NCBI GenBank assembly: GCA_964641245.1
Contig: CAZXML010000004.1
Coordinates: forward strand, 5,418-69,417
DNA length: 64,000 nt
Origin: an uncultured Gammaproteobacteria bacterium
GTDB lineage: Bacteria > Patescibacteriota > Patescibacteriia > Magasanikbacterales > GWA2-37-8
Direction of reading: 5' to 3'
The notes beneath the pieces were generated by a model, which saw nothing but the letters and a program-made list of their open reading frames with translations, ran no database searches and was not told the DNA's origin. The position numbers and the translations under genes were made by a program. Position 1 is the stretch's first letter; each line of letters starts with the position of its first letter. Below, piece after piece: positions 4,358 through 57,821 of the stretch.

Positions 4358-4362
4358 TCATT

Positions 4363-4424
4363 GTCATCCTGAACTTGTTTCAGGATCTACACGATAAAGA
4401 TGCTGAAATAAATTCAGCATGACA
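4363..4424. repeat. Family A palindromic element (hairpin pair TGTCATCCTGAACTTGTTTCAGGATC ... GATGCTGAAATAAATTCAGCATGACA)
   Basis: Two inverted hairpin units separated by about 10 bp. Termini are TGTCAT/ATGACA. Same family as 12889, 30926, 37734, 39325 and 40899. Confidence 0.75.
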
Positions 4425-6841: not shown

Positions 6842-7231
6842 TTGAGTATGATCAAAAAATACATCTACAAAAATGCCCACAAACTAAAAGACATACGCCA
6901 ATCACTCCGCGCCAACCCCACCAAGGCCGAAGAGATTCTCTGGCAACACTTAAGACGCAATCAATTAGGTTTTAAATTTCGCAGACAATTCAGCATAAAT
7001 AGTGTAGTCGTGGATTTTTGTAGCGAGCAATTAAAGCTGGTTATAGAAATCGACGGCTGGACGCATGATTTTGAGAAAACACAATTAAAGGATGCACGGA
7101 AACAGAAAATGTTAGAGGAGAATGGGTATAAAGTTGTGCGGTATACAAATGAACAGGTTTATGGGGATATCGGAGTGTTGGTTGGTGGTATAAAGAAAAT
7201 TTGCGACAGCAGGGCTTCCTTCCCCTTTTAG
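6842..7231 (+). CDS. DUF559 endonuclease-domain protein (Vsr-like fold family)
   Basis: AEEILWQHLRRNQLGFKFRRQFSINSVVVDFCSEQLKLVIEIDGWTHD...GYKVVRYTNEQV matches the DUF559 signature. The last seven codons lie inside a family F repeat. Confidence 0.7.
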   Translation: MSMIKKYIYKNAHKLKDIRQSLRANPTKAEEILWQHLRRNQLGFKFRRQFSINSVVVDFCSEQLKLVIEIDGWTHDFEKTQLKDARKQKMLEENGYKVVRYTNEQVYGDIGVLVGGIKKICDSRASFPF

Positions 7232-12888: not shown

Positions 12889-12965
12889 TGTCATCCTGAA
12901 CTTGTTTCAGGATCTAGGTATTTAAAATAGTTATCAAGAGATCCTGAAACATGTTCAGGATGACA
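12889..12965. repeat. Family A palindromic element (hairpin pair with 28-bp spacer)
   Basis: TGTCATCCTGAACTTGTTTCAGGATC ... GATCCTGAAACATGTTCAGGATGACA. Confidence 0.8.
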
Positions 12966-28086: not shown

Positions 28087-28092
28087 TTAGCT

Positions 28093-28128
28093 GTCATCCC
28101 GAGCGAGCCGTAGCGACGAGGGATGACA
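28093..28128. repeat. Family B palindromic element (TGTCATCCCGAGCGAGCCGTAGCGACGAGGGATGACA)
   Basis: Compact 36-bp palindrome with TGTCATCC/GGATGACA termini. Relatives at 46627-46670 and 54675-54768, and as an inverted pair inside secA. Confidence 0.8.
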
Positions 28129-30925: not shown

Positions 30926-31004
30926 TGTCATCCTGAATTTATTTCAGGATCTTACGGTTATATTAAAATTGCACGAGAGATTCTGAAACAAGTTCAGAAT
31001 GACA
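30926..31004. repeat. Family A palindromic element
   Basis: TGTCATCCTGAATTTATTTCAGGATC ... GATTCTGAAACAAGTTCAGAATGACA. Confidence 0.8.
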
Positions 31005-37571: not shown

Positions 37572-37733
37572 TAACAGAGTTGTGCTACAGCGCCCGGTTC
37601 ACCCCGCGCGCTTTTTTTATTGTCCGCATCCGTCTTTTTGAAGCAAAGCTTTGCAATTACGTCGGGCTTCAAAAGAAAAAAAATTTACTTTCTTCTTTAT
37701 TCAGCCCTAGCAATTGTGGTATACTTGTTCTAT

Positions 37734-37801
37734 GTCATGCTGAATTTATTTCAGCATCTAAACGGATGGCGATAGATCCTGAAACAAGTTCAGGATGACA
37801 A
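37734..37801. repeat. Family A palindromic element
   Basis: TGTCATGCTGAATTTATTTCAGCATC ... GATCCTGAAACAAGTTCAGGATGACA. Confidence 0.8.
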
Positions 37802-39191: not shown

Positions 39192-39216
39192 CCCTCGCAA
39201 GTGCGGGGGTTTTTGT
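39192..39216 (+). terminator. Rho-independent terminator
   Basis: CCCTCGC AAGT GCGGGGG followed by TTTTTGTTTT. Confidence 0.55.
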
Positions 39217-39324
39217 TTTATATTAGCCAAATAAATCGATGTTAAAAATGGATTTAAATGTTGACGAGTGTTTTTAAGTGGAGTAAAATGGATACAGGTG
39301 GGAAGAAGTGGGGACCACAGCAAA

Positions 39325-39387
39325 TGTCATGCTGAACTTGTTTCAGCATCTTTCGACGACAGATCCTGAAACAAGTTCAGGATGACA
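39325..39387. repeat. Family A palindromic element
   Basis: TGTCATGCTGAACTTGTTTCAGCATC ... GATCCTGAAACAAGTTCAGGATGACA. The 3' terminus supplies an in-frame ATG upstream of mraZ. Confidence 0.8.
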
Positions 39388-39399
39388 AATAAAAAATAT

Positions 39400-39831
39400 A
39401 TGTTCATCGGTGAATATAGCCATAGCATTGACGAAAAAGGAAGAATGGCCATACCGGTCAAATTTAGGCACGACCTAAAAAACGGCGCGGTTGTCACCCG
39501 CGGTTTGGATAATTGTTTATTTATCTACACCAAAAGCGAGTGGGCAAAGGTGGCAGAAAAATACGCCAACTTGCCAATCGCGCAAGCCAACAGCCGGGCG
39601 TTTTCCCGTTTAATGCTGGCCGGCGCCATGGATGTAGAATTGGACAAACAAGGAAGAATAATGTTGCCGGAATATTTGCGCGAGTTTGCGACTGTAAAAA
39701 AGAATGTGGTAATCGCCGGACTTTATAGCCGATTAGAAATTTGGGATGAGGAAGTTTGGAATAAGTATAAAGGTCAAACCGAAGCCGAAAGCGGCGCGAT
39801 TGCGGAGAAGATGTCAGAGCTCGGTGTATAG
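39400..39831 (+). CDS. mraZ: Transcriptional regulator MraZ
   Basis: MFIGEYSHSIDEKGRMAIPVKFR closely parallels the canonical MraZ N-terminus, so the real start is probably 39400. The track start at 39382 is the repeat-borne ATG. Confidence 0.85.
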   Translation: MFIGEYSHSIDEKGRMAIPVKFRHDLKNGAVVTRGLDNCLFIYTKSEWAKVAEKYANLPIAQANSRAFSRLMLAGAMDVELDKQGRIMLPEYLREFATVKKNVVIAGLYSRLEIWDEEVWNKYKGQTEAESGAIAEKMSELGV

Positions 39832-39927
39832 AAATTACGAAATAAAGAAATTAAGAAATTAATTTCCGTGAGATCACTCAAGAGACCGAACAAATTTCCC
39901 AATTTCTTAATTTCATTATCATGCATT

Positions 39928-40896
39928 ATGCGTCACGAACCTGTGTTGCTGAAAGAAATTCTAGAATTGTTTGATCTTAAACCCAATGATAATGTTGTTG
40001 ATTGTACTTTGGGTGATGCGGGACACAGTGAAGCGATGCTGGAAAAAATTGCGCCTAAAGGAAAATTGTTGGGTATAGATCTGGATATGGAAGCGGTGTT
40101 GCGGGCGAAAAGATTTTTGTATCGTTTCGGAGATAAAGCCATAATTGTCAGAAATAATTTTACTAATTTAAAAAAAATAACAGATGAATCAAATTTCGGT
40201 CCGGTAAACGCAATTCTGATGGACTTGGGCTGGTCGTCTCCACAATTCGCAGAGAGGGGGAGAGGATTCAGTTTTCAGACGGACGAGCCACTAGACATGC
40301 GATATGACGCCTCTTGTCATTCTGAACGAAGTGAAGAATCCCTTAACAACGGAGAGGGATCCTTCGTTCCACTCAGGATGACAACACAAACGGCCGCCGA
40401 CGTTGTGAACATTTACAGCGAACAGGAATTGGCGGGAATTTTAAAAAACTTTGGCGAGGAAAATTTGAGTAAAGAGATAGCCGAAGCAATTGTTGGTTTC
40501 AGGAAGAATAAAAAATTGGAAAAAACAGGGGAGTTGGCGGAAATAATTTTACAGGTTTATCGGACAAAATTACATTCCGATAAAGCCATTCCCTGGATAG
40601 GCGGTTTGCATCCGGCCACAAAAGTTTTTCAAGCGCTACGAATGGAAGTAAATCACGAATTGGATAATTTAAAATTGGCGTTGCCTCAAGCCGTAGATGT
40701 ATTGGCAACAGGCGGGCGCCTCGCGGTCATTACATTTCATTCGTTAGAAGACAGAATCGTAAAACATTTTTTTCAATCAATCGCGGGTAAAACAATTAAA
40801 TTAATAAATAAAAAACCAATCAGCGCGACCGATGAAGAAATAAAATTAAATCCCCGCAGTCGTAGCGCCAAATTACGGGTAGTGGAGAAAATTTAA
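39928..40896 (+). CDS. rsmH: 16S rRNA (cytosine1402-N4)-methyltransferase RsmH, carrying an in-frame 23-codon palindromic insert
   Basis: MRHEPVLLKEILE start, GFSFQTDEPLDMRYD ... TAADVVN and the C-terminal domain. The track start at 39868 is upstream and probably spurious. Confidence 0.85.
   Translation: MRHEPVLLKEILELFDLKPNDNVVDCTLGDAGHSEAMLEKIAPKGKLLGIDLDMEAVLRAKRFLYRFGDKAIIVRNNFTNLKKITDESNFGPVNAILMDLGWSSPQFAERGRGFSFQTDEPLDMRYDASCHSERSEESLNNGEGSFVPLRMTTQTAADVVNIYSEQELAGILKNFGEENLSKEIAEAIVGFRKNKKLEKTGELAEIILQVYRTKLHSDKAIPWIGGLHPATKVFQALRMEVNHELDNLKLALPQAVDVLATGGRLAVITFHSLEDRIVKHFFQSIAGKTIKLINKKPISATDEEIKLNPRSRSAKLRVVEKI
40315..40383 (+). mobile_element. 69-bp palindromic element inserted in frame in rsmH (TGTCATTCTGAACGAAG ... 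CTTCGTTCCACTCAGGATGACA)
   Basis: Terminal inverted repeats of the family A/B type. Length is 69 bp, exactly 23 codons. It encodes CHSERSEESLNNGEGSFVPLRMT between the conserved DMRxD and TAADVVN segments. Confidence 0.7.
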
Positions 40897-40898
40897 AC

Positions 40899-40962
40899 TG
40901 TCATGCTGAATTTATTTCAGCATCTATGTCGTGACAGATCCTGAAACAAGTTCAGGATGACA
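40899..40962. repeat. Family A palindromic element
   Basis: TGTCATGCTGAATTTATTTCAGCATC ... GATCCTGAAACAAGTTCAGGATGACA. Confidence 0.8.
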
Positions 40963-41000
40963 ATCAATATTCATCATTCTTAATTCATAATTCAACCGTT

Positions 41001-41396
41001 GTGTCCCTAAAACGCCAAATCCAATTCCGTTACCAAGGCATGGTTCGCTCTCTGCAAACCATCTCTTTGCCTAAACAACTCACTTCCCACCGCCACGGCG
41101 GGGCCCCGCTTCATAGCGGTGGCAAAACCACCCGTTTGGCTTTATTTTCTATTATATTTTTATTTAGTTTCGCCTATATAATCAAAACCACCGCATCCGC
41201 CACCAGCGGTTACCAAATGCATGAACTGGAAAAACAAACTTCAGCCCTGGAAACCGAGGTACAAAAATTGCAGGTAGAAATTGCGGACAACAGTTCCATG
41301 AACAACATCCAATCCAGATTGGCCAAATTAAACATGATTGAGGCAAGCGGTATCAAATACTTCACGGTCAAGAATACAGAGGTTGCAAAGAAATAA
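41001..41396 (+). CDS. FtsL/DivIC-like cell-division protein, tentative
   Basis: Follows mraZ-rsmH as in dcw clusters. Has a transmembrane helix followed by a coiled coil (LEKQTSALETEVQKLQVEIADN). Confidence 0.45.
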   Translation: MSLKRQIQFRYQGMVRSLQTISLPKQLTSHRHGGAPLHSGGKTTRLALFSIIFLFSFAYIIKTTASATSGYQMHELEKQTSALETEVQKLQVEIADNSSMNNIQSRLAKLNMIEASGIKYFTVKNTEVAKK

Positions 41397-41879: not shown

Positions 41880-42026
41880 GACCAGTCTTAACAACTAGCC
41901 CCCAATTAAGGGCGGCTACGGACTCGCCCAGGTCATTCGACCGGGCGTCAGGTCGAATGACCTGACGAACCTCATTGTGTCATATTTAAGTGGCCTAGTA
42001 GGAATCGGGTCACTAAAATTTAACGT

Positions 42027-46626: not shown

Positions 46627-46670
46627 CATCCCTCGTCGTCCCGCTATGGCGGGCTTCGCTCGGGATGACA
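46627..46670. repeat. Family B palindromic element directly after the tdk stop
   Basis: CATCCCTCGTCGTCCCGCTATGGCGGGCTTCGCTCGGGATGACA. Confidence 0.75.
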
Positions 46671-49027: not shown

Positions 49028-49411
49028 ATGAATAGTACTGTTTATGTAATGTTGGAGAATCTGGATGTTTATAAATTAGCGCGTGATTATTCCAGAAGAG
49101 GCTGGGAAATGTACGAAAAATTTGATTGGCAGCAAAGAAAAGTTATTGGTGATCAGGCTATTACAAGTATTGATTCGGTTGGCGCAAACATCGCGGAAGG
49201 CTATGGCAGATTCCACTACTTGGATAAAAATAAGTTTTATTACATTGCCCGCGGTTCATTATTCGAATCAAAGCATTGGTTGGAATTGCTAAAAGAAAGA
49301 AAACTTGTATCCGAAGAGAAATATGCGGAAATGCTGGAAGTACATAAGAATATATTGTTAAAACTTAATTTATTAATTAAATCACAATTAAATCAAAAAA
49401 GTATTTCTTAA
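49028..49411 (+). CDS. Four-helix-bundle protein (TIGR02436-type; Avd-like fold)
   Basis: LDVYKLARDY...SVGANIAEGYGRF...FYYIARGSLFESKHWLELL matches the signature of this family, which includes DGR accessory Avd proteins. Confidence 0.75.
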   Translation: MNSTVYVMLENLDVYKLARDYSRRGWEMYEKFDWQQRKVIGDQAITSIDSVGANIAEGYGRFHYLDKNKFYYIARGSLFESKHWLELLKERKLVSEEKYAEMLEVHKNILLKLNLLIKSQLNQKSIS

Positions 49412-49873: not shown

Positions 49874-49962
49874 ATTTGATATTAATACACAGCTACTGGG
49901 GATAAGTCTGTTTGACTAAAGAAAAAACATGAAATTTGTGGTATAATAATGGAGACAGTTAT

Positions 49963-52900
49963 ATGCTAACCTTAGGAAAAAGAAAACTTTTTAAAATTTT
50001 AGAAATATCCTCTATTTTTGTCGGTGTCATCATGGCGCTTTATTATTTTTATCCGGTTTTTGCCGCTCCTCCTACTACTCCATACGCGCCCGGCGAAACC
50101 ACCGATCCCGCTTGTACTCCCGGCAGTACTAATTGTACAGTTTACCCGCCTCTCACCACCACCCTCACCACTTCCACGGCCATTACTATGGCCACATCTG
50201 CTTTACGGTTTGCTTACGACTCTACAAATTATACCGCCCTCACAGTGGCCGCAGATGGCGCGCTCACGGTCAGTTCCACCGGCGGTGTCACCACTACTTT
50301 TGCCAATAAAATTTCGGTTTTAGCCAATTCATATTTCTCCACTATTTCCAGTGGCACCTGGAATGGTAGTGTTATTGGCGTTGCTTATGGCGGCACCAAC
50401 AGTTCCACCATTGGCCCAGCCGGCTCTGTCGCATATTCTAACGCCAGCAGTTACTTGTTTACCGCCGCCGGTACAGCCGGACAAATTTTGCAGGCCAATG
50501 GCACCGGCGCTCCTACTTGGATAAATACCAGCACCATGGGATTTGTTAATCTGCAGGGCGTTACGTCCGGTACGCAACAAACTGGAAATTTTAATATTAG
50601 CGGCACTGGCCTTATCGGCGCCGCTCTGGGCATCAACACCACTAGCCCCATCGCAAGTTTATCAGTGCAAGGAACGGGAACAAAAAACCCTTTCACTATC
50701 GTTTCTTCAACCAATGGGTCAATGTTGACTGTTTTGACGAACGGGAATGTTGGGATTGGCACTTCCACCCCTTCTGAAAAACTTCAGGTGGTGGGAAATA
50801 TTTCGAATGTGATTGATTCTAACACCACTTTTTCATCTTCCATCGCCACTGTAGGCACAAGTCCTTATGATATCTTTGTTTCCGGCCGCTACGCCTACGT
50901 GACAAATTATGGCGGAGGTACCCTTTCAATCGTAGATGTAACCGACCCTTTAAGACCTTCAGAAATCTCAACTGTTAGTGTAGGCACAAGCCCTTATTCG
51001 GTTTATGTCTCCGGTCACTATGCTTATACAGCAAATTATAACGCTGGTACTATTTCCGTCGTTGATGTTTCTAATCACGCTGTTCCTAAAATAGCTGCTA
51101 CTTTTAGTATATCTAAACCTGCGGGAATTTATGTCTCCGGTCGCTATGCTTATGTGACTAATTTTGATTCCAGTACCATTTCAGTTGTAGATGTATCCAA
51201 CCCCCTTAGCCTTGCTTTTGTTGCGAGCACTACCGCAGGAACGAACCCTCTTCAGATTTATGTGCAAGGAAATTATGCGTATGTGGCTAATAGGGGTAGC
51301 AGTTACATCTCAATAATAGATATTTCTAATCCTTCTGCCCCTCGCAACGTTGCCAATCCGGTTGTGGGTATATCCCCTCACGATATACACGTTTCTGGCC
51401 GTTATGCTTATGTTTCAGTATTGGAAAATGATAATTTTGCAGTTGTAGATATTTCTAATCCAAACGTTCCTGTGGTGGTAACTAGCACCCCTGCAAGCAG
51501 TGGACTGGGCGGTTATGCTTTGTACGTTTCTGGCCGTTACGCTTATGTGACCAGGAGCGCTTCAAGCACTTTAGCTGTTATAGATATTTCTAATTCATCC
51601 ACCCCCGTTTTAGCCGCCACAATTCCTGTATCCCCAGGCCCTGGCGGTGTTTATGTTTCCGGTCGCTACGCCTATGTGACAAATTATAGCGGCAGCAGTA
51701 TTACCGTCATCGACATCTCCGGCACCGAGGTCACTTCACTCATCGCCCACAGCGCCGAGGTGGGGAATCTGCAATCCCGAAACGACATTTTTGCCGAAGG
51801 AAATATAATGGCCGGCACTTCGCTGTCGGTTGGTGCTGGAGGTATTATGTCCCAAGGCGCATTGTCTGTCTTTGCTTCTTCTACCGATGCCACATCTTCT
51901 ATTTTCAATGTTTCATCCGCCCAGACATCAAATATATTTAATGTTTTTGCGAATGGAAAAATTGGTATTGGTAGTTCCACTCCGTCAACACTATTGGTCG
52001 TAAATGGAACTTCTACGATGAACGGATTACAGATTTTAAATAGGGGTTCAGCGGCTGTTCCTGCTCTGGCTATTGGCACAGCTACAGATGGTATTTATCA
52101 GCGAACCGCTACCACTTTGAACATTACCACCAATGGCGCGATTACAGCCGAATTTTATAACGGTTCAATATCAACAAACGACTTAAAAGTAAGTGCGATA
52201 TACAATGGAAGTACTGCGGGAAGCAGTGGTGGAGGTGTCATTGATTTAACCACAGTAGGATTAACTCTGGGGATTGATGGGAACGCTGCAATTTTGAATA
52301 TTAAAAATAATGTGGTCGGCATAAATACTACCACCATAAACTCCACCCTCACAGTGCAGGGCACGGATAGCATCAATCCATTTTCTATCCTTTCCTCCAC
52401 CACAGCTTCTCTGCTCACCGTTCTCACCAACGGCAATATTGGCGTCAACTCATCTAGTCCTATTGCAACTTTGGCAGTACAAGGAAATTACGGAACAAAT
52501 CCTTTTTCTATAAACTCCTCAACTGGAGCAACTATGTTAAACGTTCAAACTAATGGAACAGTTAATGTGGGAATGGGAGCTCTTTCTATTAGACACAACA
52601 ACGCTGTTACTAACAACGCAGTTTTTACTGCTGGTTCATCTGGTAGTGGGTACTTCAATGTTTGTAATGACGGCTGGTGTACTGGATTTGGAGGTGACGC
52701 GCCTGTTGCAGTCACCACTGGGTTTCAGCTTTATGGCGCGGCTCCCATCATTTTTGAGGGGAGTACTGACAATTCATTTGAAACTCGTTTGAATGTTGTC
52801 GAACCTACAGCCGACCGAACTGTTCTACTTCAAAATTTAAGCGGGACGGTTGTTATCACTGAATTAACTACCAATAATGTCGGCCTCGGCACCACCACCC

Positions 52901-53940
52901 CGCAAGCAAAACTAACTATCCAAAGCACCAGCTCCAATCCTTTTTCCATCGTAACTTCAACTGCAGGGGCCGAATCTATGTTCATTGTTTTGACGAATGG
53001 GAATGTTGGTATCGGAAGTTCCACCCCTTCCTATAACTTTGTTTCTACTGGTACGGCTGCTTTAGCAAATCTCCCCTCCGGCGCTCTTTCTGATATTCTT
53101 GTTTGCTGGACTACAGACGGACAATTAACCAGGCAAGCCACCAACTGCACTGTTTCATCTGCTCGTTTCAAAGAAAATATCCAATCTCTATCATCGGATA
53201 AACTAATGGAAAAAGTTCAAAAACTAAGAGTGGTTAGTTTTGATTACAAGTCTAATGGACAACCGAGCGAGGGTTTTATCGCCGAAGAAATTGCCCTAAT
53301 AGACCCAATGCTGGTTGTTTATACCGATAGTTACACTCCGGAAGATCTGGCTTTTGAACAGGCTAATTATCCAAGTTCAACCTTATATAAAGACGGTAAA
53401 ATATTAATTCCGCAAACAGTTGATTATTCCCGAATCTCGGTTCTTCTTACCGGCGCATTGCAAGATATAGATGCCAGATTGACCGCTTATGTTGCTTCAG
53501 CAGAGTTAATGTCTTCGGTATTCAGTATTGATGTAGCGGATATTAGCAACGACATGCCAAACTTTGCCACTGTAATTTTGGACAAATTTACTTTGGCTGT
53601 AAAAAATAGCTTAAGAAAATTGGGCCTGCTGATAAAAGATGGCGTGGCCATGGTAAAAGAATTGGTGGCGGATAAAGTGAAGACTAACCAGTTGTGCGTC
53701 GGCCAGACTTGTATAAACGAACAGCAATTGCAAGATATTTTGAGTAAAACTCAAACTCAAGCCACTCCGGTACCTGTCATCCCGAGCGAGGTCGTAGCCG
53801 ACGAGGGATTTTTGTCCACCACAACACAGGATTCTAACGTACCTGACACAACTCCAGCAACTGTCTCTGAAGAAACTCTAAGCTCTACGCTTCCAACCGT
53901 TCCCGATGAATCAGCTGATATAGTCACTTCAACTCCATAG
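49963..53940 (+). CDS. Giant surface protein: LVIVD-repeat beta-propeller, phage-tail-fibre-like G(N)(V/I)GIG(T/S)S(T/S)P repeats, C-terminal S74-type intramolecular chaperone domain
   Basis: TATAAT box at 49942, GGAGA Shine-Dalgarno sequence, then ATG at 49963. About eight SGRYAYVTNY...ISVVDVSNP units. Five LTVLTNGNVGIGTSTPS-like units. C-terminal SSARFKENIQSLSSDKLMEKVQKLRVVSFDYK matches the endosialidase-chaperone consensus. Confidence 0.6.
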   Translation: MLTLGKRKLFKILEISSIFVGVIMALYYFYPVFAAPPTTPYAPGETTDPACTPGSTNCTVYPPLTTTLTTSTAITMATSALRFAYDSTNYTALTVAADGALTVSSTGGVTTTFANKISVLANSYFSTISSGTWNGSVIGVAYGGTNSSTIGPAGSVAYSNASSYLFTAAGTAGQILQANGTGAPTWINTSTMGFVNLQGVTSGTQQTGNFNISGTGLIGAALGINTTSPIASLSVQGTGTKNPFTIVSSTNGSMLTVLTNGNVGIGTSTPSEKLQVVGNISNVIDSNTTFSSSIATVGTSPYDIFVSGRYAYVTNYGGGTLSIVDVTDPLRPSEISTVSVGTSPYSVYVSGHYAYTANYNAGTISVVDVSNHAVPKIAATFSISKPAGIYVSGRYAYVTNFDSSTISVVDVSNPLSLAFVASTTAGTNPLQIYVQGNYAYVANRGSSYISIIDISNPSAPRNVANPVVGISPHDIHVSGRYAYVSVLENDNFAVVDISNPNVPVVVTSTPASSGLGGYALYVSGRYAYVTRSASSTLAVIDISNSSTPVLAATIPVSPGPGGVYVSGRYAYVTNYSGSSITVIDISGTEVTSLIAHSAEVGNLQSRNDIFAEGNIMAGTSLSVGAGGIMSQGALSVFASSTDATSSIFNVSSAQTSNIFNVFANGKIGIGSSTPSTLLVVNGTSTMNGLQILNRGSAAVPALAIGTATDGIYQRTATTLNITTNGAITAEFYNGSISTNDLKVSAIYNGSTAGSSGGGVIDLTTVGLTLGIDGNAAILNIKNNVVGINTTTINSTLTVQGTDSINPFSILSSTTASLLTVLTNGNIGVNSSSPIATLAVQGNYGTNPFSINSSTGATMLNVQTNGTVNVGMGALSIRHNNAVTNNAVFTAGSSGSGYFNVCNDGWCTGFGGDAPVAVTTGFQLYGAAPIIFEGSTDNSFETRLNVVEPTADRTVLLQNLSGTVVITELTTNNVGLGTTTPQAKLTIQSTSSNPFSIVTSTAGAESMFIVLTNGNVGIGSSTPSYNFVSTGTAALANLPSGALSDILVCWTTDGQLTRQATNCTVSSARFKENIQSLSSDKLMEKVQKLRVVSFDYKSNGQPSEGFIAEEIALIDPMLVVYTDSYTPEDLAFEQANYPSSTLYKDGKILIPQTVDYSRISVLLTGALQDIDARLTAYVASAELMSSVFSIDVADISNDMPNFATVILDKFTLAVKNSLRKLGLLIKDGVAMVKELVADKVKTNQLCVGQTCINEQQLQDILSKTQTQATPVPVIPSEVVADEGFLSTTTQDSNVPDTTPATVSEETLSSTLPTVPDESADIVTSTP

Positions 53941-54391: not shown

Positions 54392-54694
54392 ATGCAAATC
54401 AAATTTAAAAAAGATCAAGTGCCTGATCCGGAAAAATTTATCCGCCGTTGCGGTTATGGCAAAATTATAGACCGCCGTATGAACAAAACCAGCTATGCCA
54501 AACGCATTCATCGCGATTTTTATCCGCGTTTTCACGTGTATATAAAAGTAGACGAAGAAAATGTTATTTTTGACTTGCATCTGGACCAAAAACGCCCTAT
54601 TTACGAAGGCGTCACCGCTCATTCCGGGGAATACGACGGCGAGGTGGTGGAAAGAGAAGGGGAGAGGATACGTTTGTCATTGCGACCCGCCTAG
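54392..54694 (+). CDS. Hypothetical small basic protein
   Basis: 100 aa. The final codons and the stop lie inside the palindromic element at 54675-54768. Confidence 0.35.
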   Translation: MQIKFKKDQVPDPEKFIRRCGYGKIIDRRMNKTSYAKRIHRDFYPRFHVYIKVDEENVIFDLHLDQKRPIYEGVTAHSGEYDGEVVEREGERIRLSLRPA

Positions 54695-54768
54695 GCGGGG
54701 AAGCAATCCCCAAGTATGGCAGTGCTAACCATGGAATTGCCGCGTCGCTACTACTCCTCGCAATGACA
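54675..54768. repeat. Family B-like palindromic element (TGTCATTGCGACCCGCC ... CTCCTCGCAATGACA)
   Basis: 94-bp element with 11-bp perfect terminal inverted repeats. Overlaps the 3' end of ORF 54392-54694. Confidence 0.7.
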
Positions 54769-54947: not shown

Positions 54948-57821
54948 ATGTCATTTCTCACTAAAATTTTCGGTGATCCGAACGCCAAAGTAATCCAAAG
55001 CATTCAGCCTATAATTGCCAAAATAAATTCCCTAGAGCCGGAAATGGCCAAATTAAGCATGGCCGATTTGCGCGCCAAAACAGGTGAGTTTAGAACTCGT
55101 TTGGCAAAAAATGAAACCTTGGACGACATTTTGCCCGAGGCTTTTGCCGTCGTCCGCGAAACTTCCAAACGCTTAACCGGTATGCGTCATTTTGATGTGC
55201 AACTAATCGGCGGTGTGGTTTTGCATCGCGGCAGTATTGCCGAAATGGGCACTGGAGAAGGTAAAACTCTGGTGGGAACATTGCCTGTGTACTTAAATGC
55301 TCTGGCCGGCAAGGGTGTGCATGTTGTTACCGTAAACGATTATCTGGCCAAACGCGACGCCGTGTGGATGGGTCAAATTTACGATGCGCTGGGATTAAGC
55401 ATTGGTATTATTCAACAGCAATTAACATCATACAAATACAACGCCAATTCTGTCATTTCGCCCGCCACGTCTGTCATTCCGAGCGAGCGAAGCGACGAGG
55501 AATCTATACCGATGAAAGAAAATAAATCTTTATTAAACGGAATAGATCCCTCGTCGTCTACGGCCTCGCTCGGGATGACAGGTGAGGACCTCTCCGAAGG
55601 CAGCGTCGCCGACAAAGAACGCGACGTTAAAGGAATGTTCAAAGTAGAAGCCGAATATCTGGAACCGTGCGCCCGCCAAGAAGCGTATCGCTGTGATATC
55701 ACTTACGGAACCAACAATGAATTTGGCTTTGATTATTTGCGCGACAACATGGTGCAGAATAAACACGAAATGTCGCAGAGGCCTTTTTATTTTGCGATTG
55801 TGGACGAAGTCGATTCTATTTTAATAGACGAAGCGCGCACTCCGCTTATTATTTCCGCGCCCGCCCAGGAATCTTCCGACAAATATATTAAATTTGCCGC
55901 GCTTGTCCGCCAGTTAAAAGAAAATGAAGATTACAACGTAGACGAAAAAATGCGTTCATCCACTCTTACCGATGTTGGTTTAAATAAAATGGAAAAGTGG
56001 TTGGGGGTAGATAATATTTACGCTGAAGGCGGCATGTCTATGGTTCACCATTTAGAGCAGGCGTTGCGCGCGTACGCGCTATTCAAAAGAGACCGCGATT
56101 ATATTGTGGATAACGGCGAAGTAATAATCGTAGACGAATTTACCGGCCGGAAAATGCCGGGACGTCGTTATAGCGAAGGTTTGCATCAGGCCATAGAAGC
56201 GCAGGAAGGCGTAAAAATTCAACAGGAAAGCCAAACAATGGCTACTATTACGTTTCAAAATTATTTCCGTCTTTACGAAAAACTTTCCGGCATGACCGGA
56301 ACAGCCGTCACCGAAGCGGAAGAATTCGGAAAAATTTATAAATTGGAAGTGGTGGTAATTCCAGCCAACAAAAAAAATCAGCGTCATAATTTACCGGACA
56401 GAATTTACAAAACCGAAGAGATAAAATATAAAGCTATCGCCCAAACCGTAAAAGAACTTCAGGAAAAAGGCCAGCCGGTTTTAATCGGCACCGTGGCCGT
56501 AGACAGAAACGAAGCTCTCTCACTTTATTTGCAAAGAGAGGGGATTGCGCACGAAATTTTAAACGCCAAGAATCACGAACGTGAAGGTGAAATTATTGCT
56601 CAAGCCGGACGCGCCGGAGCGGTCACTTTAGCTACCAATATGGCCGGCCGCGGTGTGGACATTATTTTAGGAGGAAACCCGCCGGATTCTGCCGAAGCCG
56701 AAAAAGTGCGCGCCGCCGGCGGTTTGTTTGTTATCGGTACCGAACGCCACGAAAGCCGTCGCATAGACAATCAGTTGCGCGGTCGGGCCGGCCGTCAGGG
56801 AGATCCGGGTGAATCTCAGTTTTATCTTTCCACCGAAGATGATTTAATGCGTATTTTTGCCGGCGAACGCATCCGTTCGGTAATGGAAACTCTAAAAGTT
56901 CCGGATGATATGCCGATAGAACAAGGAATGATTTCCCGCATTATAGAATCTGCCCAAAAAAAAGTGGAAGGCATTCATTTTGATACCCGCAAACATTTAT
57001 TGGAATATGATGATGTGCTTAATCGCCACCGCGAAGTTATCTACGGTAAACGCCGGGAAATTTTAGACGCGTTTGAAGCGGAGAAAAATAAGACCGTAGC
57101 CGAAGGCGCTAAAACAATGCGCGAAATGATTCTGGAAATGGTGGAGCAGGAAATAGAACAGGTAATTTCTTTTCATACCAACACCGAAGACAGAAAAGAC
57201 TGGAACGTAACCGAAATCATTCAAACCGTCACCACCATATTCCCACTATCCGATGCCGAGAAAAAAACCATCACCGAATTATCCGAAAATAAGCACGAAC
57301 AAAAAATGGAAGATGCGGCCATCAGAACCGGCTTTATTGAATATTTATTAAAACTAGCCAACCAGAAATACGAAACCCTGCTGGAAAAAACCGTGCCTGA
57401 TCCGGAAATGCTGTTAGAAATAGAAAAACAGGTATTACTCCGGGCCATAGATAATTTATGGGTAGAACATTTAGTGGCCGTAGATTATTTACGCACCGGC
57501 ATTGGTTTGCGCGGTTACGGTCAGCACGACCCGCTGGTAGAATACAAAAAAGAAACCTACCGCATGTTCAACGAACTGATGAATCTTATCCAAAAAGAGG
57601 TTGTTTATTTAATTTACAAAGTTAATCTGGGAATTCAATTGGCCCCGTCGGTAATGAACAGCAATGCTTTAAATTTTAGCGGCGCCGCTAAGACGGCTGA
57701 TAGCGAAGAGTATATAGCCAATAGCGGAAAGGAAAAAGATGGCGAAGGAAAAGTTATTGGCCGCAATGACCCGTGTCCGTGTGGTTCTGGAAAGAAATTT
57801 AAGCGCTGCCATGGAGCGTAA
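54948..57821 (+). CDS. secA: Preprotein translocase ATPase SecA, carrying an in-frame palindromic insert in NBD1
   Basis: Walker A GEGKTLV, DITYGTNNEFGFDYLRDNM, DEVDSILIDEARTPLIIS and C-terminal zinc site CPCGSGKKFKRCHG. At 957 aa it is larger than typical because of the insert. Confidence 0.95.
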   Translation: MSFLTKIFGDPNAKVIQSIQPIIAKINSLEPEMAKLSMADLRAKTGEFRTRLAKNETLDDILPEAFAVVRETSKRLTGMRHFDVQLIGGVVLHRGSIAEMGTGEGKTLVGTLPVYLNALAGKGVHVVTVNDYLAKRDAVWMGQIYDALGLSIGIIQQQLTSYKYNANSVISPATSVIPSERSDEESIPMKENKSLLNGIDPSSSTASLGMTGEDLSEGSVADKERDVKGMFKVEAEYLEPCARQEAYRCDITYGTNNEFGFDYLRDNMVQNKHEMSQRPFYFAIVDEVDSILIDEARTPLIISAPAQESSDKYIKFAALVRQLKENEDYNVDEKMRSSTLTDVGLNKMEKWLGVDNIYAEGGMSMVHHLEQALRAYALFKRDRDYIVDNGEVIIVDEFTGRKMPGRRYSEGLHQAIEAQEGVKIQQESQTMATITFQNYFRLYEKLSGMTGTAVTEAEEFGKIYKLEVVVIPANKKNQRHNLPDRIYKTEEIKYKAIAQTVKELQEKGQPVLIGTVAVDRNEALSLYLQREGIAHEILNAKNHEREGEIIAQAGRAGAVTLATNMAGRGVDIILGGNPPDSAEAEKVRAAGGLFVIGTERHESRRIDNQLRGRAGRQGDPGESQFYLSTEDDLMRIFAGERIRSVMETLKVPDDMPIEQGMISRIIESAQKKVEGIHFDTRKHLLEYDDVLNRHREVIYGKRREILDAFEAEKNKTVAEGAKTMREMILEMVEQEIEQVISFHTNTEDRKDWNVTEIIQTVTTIFPLSDAEKKTITELSENKHEQKMEDAAIRTGFIEYLLKLANQKYETLLEKTVPDPEMLLEIEKQVLLRAIDNLWVEHLVAVDYLRTGIGLRGYGQHDPLVEYKKETYRMFNELMNLIQKEVVYLIYKVNLGIQLAPSVMNSNALNFSGAAKTADSEEYIANSGKEKDGEGKVIGRNDPCPCGSGKKFKRCHGA
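55451..55580 (+). mobile_element. Composite palindromic element (two inverted family B units) inside secA
   Basis: TGTCATTCCGAGCGAGCGAAGCGACGAGGAA...[50 bp]...GATCCCTCGTCGTCTACGGCCTCGCTCGGGATGACA, plus an extra TGTCATTTCG at 55451. It is translated in frame. Confidence 0.7.

Follow-up and report, generated by a model that had tools for sequence, protein, structure and literature searches.

Repetitive extragenic palindromes (REPs) marked by a CGTC tag, often present as TGTC and also as CCTC, are dispersed multi-copy repeats that lie beside or inside genes and have no known dedicated transposase (Di Nocera, De Gregorio and Rocco 2013, BMC Genomics 14:522; PMC3733652). Each unit has a stem of 8-9 bp opening with A-T then T-A, a loop of 4-5 nt and an unpaired 3-nt tail with the consensus CCA, and the units occur mainly as head-to-head dimers, often heterodimers, with the tags outside and spacers usually of 20-100 bp (PMC3733652). 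Intragenic CGTC and GTAG REP dimers encode 20-30 aa, and the CGTC class includes Rickettsia RPE-4 and RPE-6 and Neisseria dRS3; Patescibacteria and the Candidate Phyla Radiation (CPR) are not among the five phyla listed (PMC3733652). Here we describe a 69-bp head-to-head REP dimer at positions 40315-40383 of a 64-kb stretch of a Candidatus Magasanikbacteria (CPR) genome (contig CAZXML010000004.1; hereafter the window, in whose positions all coordinates are given), located in frame inside rsmH, the gene for the 16S rRNA m4C1402 methyltransferase. We consider it likely that this dimer is a TGTC/CGTC-type insertion that is translated and tolerated and has since been turned over in place.

Likened to CGTC REPs by their published definition, the rsmH units share the TGTC tag, the A-T opening, the head-to-head heterodimeric arrangement, the dispersed copies and the intragenic position. 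They differ in a 3-nt loop in place of 4-5 nt and in a spacer of 17 nt that falls slightly below the usual range, and perhaps also in the stem, with seven Watson-Crick pairs plus two tandem G.A positions against 8-9 bp, and in the short tail, CCC against CCA. A second family in the window, family A (8-bp stem, 5-nt loop), and a dimer with a GAAA loop and a CCA tail in one relative (L209) fit the definition closely.

REPINs, by comparison, are essentially extragenic, carry a GTAG tag and are associated with a RAYT (REP-associated tyrosine transposase) of the IS200/IS605-type Y1 class. They and the GTAG REPs are reportedly mobilised by these enzymes, as Bertels and Rainey in 2011 and Nunvar and colleagues in 2010 are said to have described. 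The rsmH element resembles REPINs in its inverted doublet of units, variable spacer, short conserved tag by the hairpin and lack of a target-site duplication. It differs in its tag, TGTC and not GTAG, and in that Pfam found no Y1_Tnp match and no RAYT or IS200-type gene among the open reading frames (ORFs) of at least 120 aa in the window.

Rickettsia palindromic elements (RPEs), described by Ogata et al. (2000, Science 290:347) and summarised in PMC10969869, lie in frame in unrelated conserved genes of hosts with small genomes and, according to that summary, are translated as extra peptide segments at fold-compatible positions; the classic elements (RPE-1) are Rickettsia-specific and about 100-150 bp long, with roughly 150 bp given there. 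As far as that account reaches, the Magasanikbacteria repeats are like RPEs in having entered two unrelated conserved genes, rsmH and secA, in frame and at a fold-compatible site, and unlike the classic RPEs in the length of 69 bp and the CPR host, a comparison made with the description of RPEs. One loop is reused here, in related lineages, by different repeat families and simple repeats, which we did not find described for RPEs in the texts consulted. [quoted passage not shown] The rsmH dimer is likewise short and non-autonomous, with inverted repeats of a kind that sometimes give in-frame fusions; its inverted ends are present, but neither a parent-IS match nor a target-site duplication was seen.

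A literature search for the unit sequence returned unrelated primer matches only, no paper linking REPs or MITEs with CPR bacteria was found in the literature searched, and the supplements of PMC3733652 hold no mention of rsmH/mraW or secA and none of the GTCAT strings searched for. An in-frame REP dimer is apparently unreported for CPR, the phenomenon itself being known from Rickettsia RPEs and from intragenic GTAG/CGTC REPs (PMC3733652, PMC10969869). The locus would extend translated selfish palindromes from Rickettsia and a few Proteobacteria and Verrucomicrobia to ultra-small CPR bacteria, whose streamlined genomes are not expected to tolerate such elements.

An in-frame insert in the RsmH linker

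The 322-aa rsmH ORF (39928-40896, + strand) matches Pfam PF01795 at E=3e-97, and the insert divides this match in two. A sequence-only reading of the same DNA had placed a 69-bp, 23-codon element in frame at this position, and both the sequence and the ORF confirm it: the 69 nt (TGTCATTCTGAACGAAGTGAAGAATCCCTTAACAACGGAGAGGGATCCTTCGTTCCACTCAGGATGACA) are codon-aligned, occupy codons 130-152 of rsmH and encode the 23 residues C130-T152 (CHSERSEESLNNGEGSFVPLRMT) in the linker between the motifs DMRY and TAAD. In a motif scan of fetched rsmH genes, which gives lengths only where a DMRx...TAAD segment was detected, the DMR[YFM]-TAA[DE] linker is 28 aa in the window and mostly 5-7 aa in other genomes, in agreement with the earlier estimate of 28 residues against about 5. 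The extra residues are unmatched in alignments to the solved RsmH/MraW structures 1M6Y and 1WG8, and the match to 3TKA is split around them. In the 120 closest protein clusters, which to judge by their names are all Patescibacteria/Magasanikbacteria, the short linker Y-STTEKE-TAAD is seen in about 24 close relatives, and 15 clusters bear long inserts whose peptides are of the repeat type.

An artefact of assembly, which the sequence-only reading had named as a refutation, or of chimera formation is exceedingly improbable. Palindromes can provoke misassembly, but the window RsmH is 100% identical to protein P0001, the identical protein is recorded from NCBI, JGI and Logan assemblies, and the same insert is present in independent assemblies from different sequencing runs (L001-L004 and L206).

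Mapping onto structure, which had been proposed with the original observation, agreed with an added segment in an otherwise normal enzyme. An AlphaFold model from a 90-sequence alignment reached a mean predicted local distance difference test score (pLDDT) of 86.9 and a predicted template modelling score (pTM) of 0.82, with target-normalised Foldseek TM-scores of 0.88-0.91 to 1WG8, 1N2X and 3TKA; its only segment with pLDDT below 50, residues 131-150, lies inside the insert. Most likely the insert is translated and makes a disordered loop on the protein surface, at the hinge where the two RsmH domains meet, and the enzyme presumably tolerates it. A translated insert would be expected to yield peptides such as SEESLNNGEGSFVPLR.

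Each unit of the heterodimer is a conserved hairpin

The dimer comprises a left unit (40315-40340, + strand), a spacer (40341-40357) and a right unit (40358-40383, - strand; reverse complement TGTCATCCTGAGTGGAACGAAGGATC). The left 25-nt unit reads GTCATTCTGAACGAAGTGAAGAATC and the right one, reverse-complemented, GTCATCCTGAGTGGAACGAAGGATC; a T precedes each to give the TGTC tag, which lies at 40315-40318 and, on the opposite strand, at 40380-40383, and the stem starts with AT. In the left unit, 40319-40327 pairs with 40331-40339 around the triloop GAA (40328-40330), followed by C at 40340. The stem covers nine positions, of which five are Watson-Crick pairs (unit positions 4-24, 5-23, 6-22, 7-21 and 8-20), the next two an invariant tandem G.A/A.G (9-19 and 10-18) and the last two again Watson-Crick pairs (11-17 and 12-16), closing a 3-nt loop. 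The loops of the two rsmH units, GAA and GGA, would measure 11 nt if the G.A and inner pairs were left uncounted. The tail CCC after both units is here paired within the 17-nt spacer, as an inner stem CCCT/AGGG around a variable centre.

The claim that the element is a palindrome held for its termini, TGTCAT/ATGACA, which are perfect, and not for the whole, which is imperfect, with 30-nt arms that are 77% complementary. Folded entire, the 69 nt reach -31.2 kcal/mol as RNA (z=-4.5, 0/200 shuffles) and -14.3 kcal/mol as DNA (z=-3.35). Left and right units differ at seven positions, all by transitions; one difference sits in the loop and the other six make up three compensatory pairs (6-22 T-A/C-G, 11-17 A-T/G-C and 12-16 C-G/T-A). 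Across 55 distinct 25-mers, gathered without any pairing requirement, 87.5% of cells are paired compared with 72.6% in shuffles, and double-sided changes are found in 67 cells where 19 are expected (0/500 shuffles). Each of the seven Watson-Crick pairs shows covariation, and pairing in slid controls is 24-46%. Of the 55 units, 41 have A-U at pair 4-24; at pair 5-23, 39 have U-A and 10 have C-G. A scan of metagenomes in which position 11 could be any R and position 17 any Y recovered G-C 103 times, A-T 19 times, G.T four times and A.C twice. These data confirm that the conserved structure is each 25-nt unit's own hairpin and not the long hairpin, since the compensatory positions would be mismatches or wobbles in the latter.

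The units belong to a repeat family that is dense in the window. Hairpin units with the TGTC tag occur 23 times, where Markov simulations predict 2.6, and TGTCAT...ATGACA pairs (dimers) within 30-130 nt occur 13 times, where 0.17 are expected. The same ends mark the dimers at 4362, 12889, 30926, 37733, 39325, 40899 and 54675, as well as one in secA, so that the proposed sharing of termini with intergenic families extends to seven intergenic dimers.

Turnover at the rsmH junction in relatives

The RsmH of L001, 92-93% identical to that of the window by protein, holds the same 69-bp dimer. Both arms are identical (57/57), compared with 87% for the rest of the gene and 73% at third codon positions, and all six differences fall within the 12-nt centre of the spacer. 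In L002-L004 the dimer is 78 bp long and its inner stem shows a compensatory C>T/G>A change, and L206 and L207 have 84-bp versions in which the left unit is different and the right unit the same or nearly the same. In L085 and L005, about 80% identical by protein, a different dimer family occupies the identical junction, TCY-TGTCAT...ATGACA-ACA CAA; this dimer shares 78% identity, counting the spacer, with the intergenic one at 54675-54768 but only 53-59% with the window's rsmH dimer, and L005 has a further unit just upstream of rsmH. A 111-bp dimer fills the same junction in L208, the insert of L210 lies 2 nt away from it, and in L209 a dimer of textbook form, TGTC ATCCCCGT GAAA ACGGGGAT CCA, stands at a shifted position. 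Between its genes, L001 contains a further heterodimer of the rsmH type, an oppositely oriented paralogue with 77% identity. In L211 (1167-1211) and L212 (3379-3423), heptanucleotide tandem repeats, (AAATCCG)x4 and (GAAGTCA)x4 respectively, stand in the rsmH loop and there is no REP dimer, and in L006, which served as the empty-site DNA reference, the site is empty.

A codon neighbour-joining tree with the loop masked, of which only the high-bootstrap nodes were used (the protein neighbour-joining tree was poorly resolved), joins the window with L001 (93%), dimer-bearing L002 with heptamer-bearing L211 (100%), that pair with L212 (100%) and a clade of ten (97%). The rsmH dimer appears to be ancestral to the related-lineage clade and to have been lost, exchanged or replaced on several occasions since.

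Lineages with different dimer families have in common the flanking codons GAC GCN TCY ... ACA CAA, whereas the empty allele instead reads TCC ACG ACA GAA AAA GAA. Because the flanking codons are shared across dimer families, unlike the empty allele, exchange within the filled allele is favoured over independent insertion into empty alleles. Separate, site-specific insertions of different REP dimers at precisely this point are unlikely: two unrelated dimer families at one identical junction, the interspersion of filled and empty alleles on the trees and the same pattern at one secA loop would all suit them, but the shared flanking codons fit replacement within a filled allele, the shifted dimers of L209 and L210 show that precision is not absolute, and the intergenic flanks share no target beyond the T and A of the tag.

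A translated, tolerated insertion with later turnover would run as follows. A head-to-head heterodimer from a dispersed, mobile-type repeat superfamily, abundant in the Magasanikbacteria genome, would have entered the linker that joins the RsmH methyltransferase core to its helical domain, and would have been kept because it is a whole number of codons long and offers no stop in the frame that it takes up. Its translation would thus give a 23-residue disordered surface loop, leaving the fold undisturbed. The insertion would be ancestral to the related-lineage clade and would later have turned over in place, its spacer and left unit changing and the dimer being swapped for another family at the same junction or replaced by heptanucleotide repeats or a short linker.

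Two side observations concern the same loop. A change in copy number of the 7-nt repeats would shift the reading frame, and the L212 array ends in ...GTCAGAATGAAACA, which resembles the REP terminus ...CTCAGAATGACA; one may speculate from this likeness that the heptamer repeats derive from decayed element ends. In more distant relatives (L013 1882-1956, P0111) another insert, different in kind and of 25-27 aa (…CPHSAEPPQAVDGKQLYGKC), occupies the same RsmH loop; its DNA folds strongly in L013 and has no TGTC tag.

The right unit is invariant across four lineages

Among the window, L001, L002 and L206, 63% of rsmH alignment columns are invariant, and no unbroken run of such columns is longer than the 27 nt at 40358-40384, the right unit with two flanking bases. 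Of 957 stretches of 25 nt, just three show no change at all, each of them in the right unit. This unit matches at 25/25 positions in genes whose third codon positions agree at 52-73%; between the two closest genomes, the 12-nt spacer centre has 6 differences. The exact right-unit variant was seen nowhere else in the window, the loci or the viral contigs.

Such conservation is not predicted for a neutral passenger and, as far as aligned sequences can indicate, points to maintenance at the nucleotide level. Possible causes are nucleotide-level selection, gene conversion from unseen copies and re-insertion from a conserved master copy. The dimer might, on this account, have entered as a REP insertion and now be held as a DNA or RNA structure or a protein-binding site in the mraZ-rsmH operon, or by conversion or re-insertion from the master copy. 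We regard this as unlikely, while noting that the evidence cuts both ways. Beyond the invariant run itself, the absence of the exact variant elsewhere argues against conversion from other copies, and G.U pairs are rare in the covariation table, which would suit duplex DNA or orientation-independent selection. On the other hand, a function at this site cannot be essential, because most close relatives are without the insert and others have another dimer, or a simple repeat, in its place; conservation does not extend to the left unit in L206 or L207; the small part of each genome compared means that conversion donors may lie elsewhere; and the four lineages compared are all related. The right unit also qualifies the term selfish palindromes used in the sequence-only reading: a dispersed repeat family in conserved genes stands, whereas 'selfish' is an interpretation with which conservation so extreme, unlike that of a neutral passenger, sits poorly.

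Further points join this one in weighing against a translated and tolerated mobile insertion. The flanks of 13 elements show no direct repeat and no target-site duplication, having in common only the T and A of the tag, and a Pfam scan of the 64-kb window found no transposase domain in any ORF of at least 120 aa. Isolated rsmH units fold at only -0.8 and -1.7 kcal/mol (z about 0) in a nearest-neighbour model, because the model ignores sheared G.A pairs; the energy model gives the unit no support, and its hairpin therefore rests on covariation and the non-canonical G.A pairs. The junction dimers, of 69, 78, 84, 84, 87, 105 and 111 bp, are all multiples of three without stop codons, a regularity that is partly an ascertainment effect since full-length homologues were found through intact protein calls. 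The data show the dimer's anatomy, its family, its status as an insertion against homologues, the variation among relatives and, through covariation, the unit hairpin; translation of the insert, its tolerance by the enzyme, the neutrality of the element and its mode of mobility we infer, and mobility as such from distribution alone.

Removal or bypass of the insert on the way to the protein, whether the RNA is processed or translation hops over the hairpin, is very improbable. The strong fold of the 69 nt as RNA would favour it, but all seven length variants preserve the frame and are free of stops, the secA insert is likewise in frame, and 69 nt is far too short for a self-splicing intron. 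A permissive Rfam scan of 39200-41100 returned only sub-threshold chance matches, with no family, intron or ribozyme, and a gathering-threshold scan of the whole window detected tRNA only.

A bolder idea, which we advance tentatively and hold to be improbable as matters stand, is that embedded REP dimers are not inert and that the rsmH site, and likewise the secA loop, acts as a fixed 'landing pad' at which families are exchanged at a nucleotide-identical junction while one unit, the gene's most conserved 27 nt among lineages with half-saturated synonymous sites, is held invariant in DNA. If true, it would imply a protein or recombination system that recognises and maintains the TGTC-tagged hairpin, or an exapted operon structure; such behaviour is not known to have been described for CGTC-type REPs.

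A second in-frame dimer in secA

The parallel case in secA noted earlier is real: an in-frame dimer lies at 55472-55580 within secA (54948-57821), with a truncated extra TGTCAT head at 55451, 21 nt upstream. The window SecA reads VIPSERSDEESIPMKENKSLLNGIDPSSSTASLGMT where most relatives read ...NAEKRIKPEEDVSEG..., and other relatives have different repeat-type inserts or a simple repeat at that loop. In SecA P0122 the insert VILNEVKNP..GSFAGAQDD is the rsmH-type left unit read in another frame. Each rsmH unit is open in two of three frames, the left giving CHSERSEES and VILNEVKNP and the right GILRSTQDD and GSFVPLRMT.

Length divisible by three had been taken as a trait of the element. The rsmH dimer, at 69 nt, has it, but the secA dimer measures 109 nt tag to tag, which is not a multiple of three, so divisibility comes from the reading frame, which acts as a filter, and is no inherent trait of the element. 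The idea that such palindromes survive inside essential genes needs similar trimming, being safe for secA only, because rsmH is not known to be essential in E. coli.

These comparisons bear on whether the insert is an ordinary lineage-specific protein loop whose palindromic DNA is incidental, a view that is highly improbable and already contradicted. It would account for an in-frame segment without stops and for the recurrence of the peptide part SFVPLRMT in relatives. Against it, the same units occur between genes, in both orientations and in other frames, as VILNEVKNP in SecA P0122 illustrates; synonymous sites are frozen while central residues vary; and the segment is predicted to be disordered. 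The sequence-only reading had raised the prospect of a conserved peptide on non-palindromic DNA, but relatives hold palindromic DNA whose hairpin has compensatory changes, and many close ones have no insert. Loops of RsmH and SecA that have repeatedly been struck by repeat families or heptanucleotide repeats could serve as natural markers of insertion-tolerant sites and would be a source of rapid variation in protein length.

Units on metagenome and viral contigs

The 25-mer GTCATTCTGARCRAAGYGAAGAATC is found on at least 120 metagenome contigs of 30-70% GC, as single units and as inverted dimers, and a narrower pattern, GTCATTCTGARCGAAGYGAAGAATC, on 42 predicted viral contigs. The left unit's identical 25-mer is present in many metagenome contigs. 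The frozen right unit, together with a 25-mer that spans 30-70% GC and viral contigs, poses the question of what recognises these hairpins.

Two observations stand beside this distribution. With next to no change, the 25-mer GTCATTCTGAGCGAAGCGAAGAATC recurs in many environments, on contigs that range from 30 to 70% GC (L086-L205), and on predicted viral contigs (L213-L254). The only recurrent neighbour from ORF clustering was a GIY-YIG family, at 5 of 120 metagenome loci among the matches listed; GIY-YIG ORFs of about 105 aa adjoin or run into the 25-nt unit in L089, L109, L119, L194 and one further locus. A GIY-YIG protein was considered as the mobilising enzyme and set aside, none being present in the window or the related loci.

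Other repeats and genes in the window

Six intergenic dimers make up family A, with the unit consensus TGTC ATSCTGAA YTTRT TTCAGSAT C and a clean 8-bp stem with a 5-nt loop (CTTGT): 4362-4424, 12889-12965, 30926-31004, 37733-37800, 39325-39387 (TGTC ATGCTGAA CTTGT TTCAGCAT C ..., directly upstream of mraZ) and 40899-40962 (directly after the rsmH stop codon), the last two flanking the mraZ-rsmH pair. For the left unit of the dimer at 40899 the folding energy is -6.8 kcal/mol (z=-4.3). The intergenic dimer at 54675-54768, which matches the L085 rsmH-site dimer as given above, reads TGTCATTGCGA...GCAATCC..ATGGCAGTGCTAAC..TTGCC..CTCGCAATGACA. Intergenic copies measure 63-94 nt tag to tag, and the spacers of the other window dimers are about 11-43 nt. 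A single self-palindromic tagged unit lies between genes at 28092-28128 and a single tagged unit at 46627-46670 (- strand, intergenic). Another, at 53775-53810 (+ strand), falls in the low-complexity C-terminal tail of a 1334-aa ORF with LVIVD repeats and a Peptidase_S74 domain (49936-53940), where it is translated as PVIPSEVVADEGF.

The terminal ATGAC of the repeat supplies the ATG taken as the ORF start at 39382 and at 28123, and the real start of mraZ is probably M7 (MFIGEY...) and not the mechanical one at 39382. Gene starts beside repeats are unreliable because the terminal ATGAC offers a start ATG to mechanical ORF calling. For annotation, such repeats inflate or distort gene calls, giving false starts and pseudo-motifs such as HSERSEES, VILSEAKN and SLRMT.

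A 30-nt perfect-ended palindrome at 41932-41961, GTCATTCGACCGGGCGTCAGGTCGAATGAC, is without the tag's flanking T and A; it could be a hairpin of another type or else a terminator, placed upstream of the DEAD-box helicase gene. Two 'selfish-looking' small genes, at 6842-7231 and 49028-49411, encode a DUF559 protein (Vsr-like endonuclease fold) and a 23S_rRNA_IVP four-helix-bundle protein, and PDDEXK_3 genes lie just upstream of mraZ in L207 (9033-9455) and L210 (407-643).

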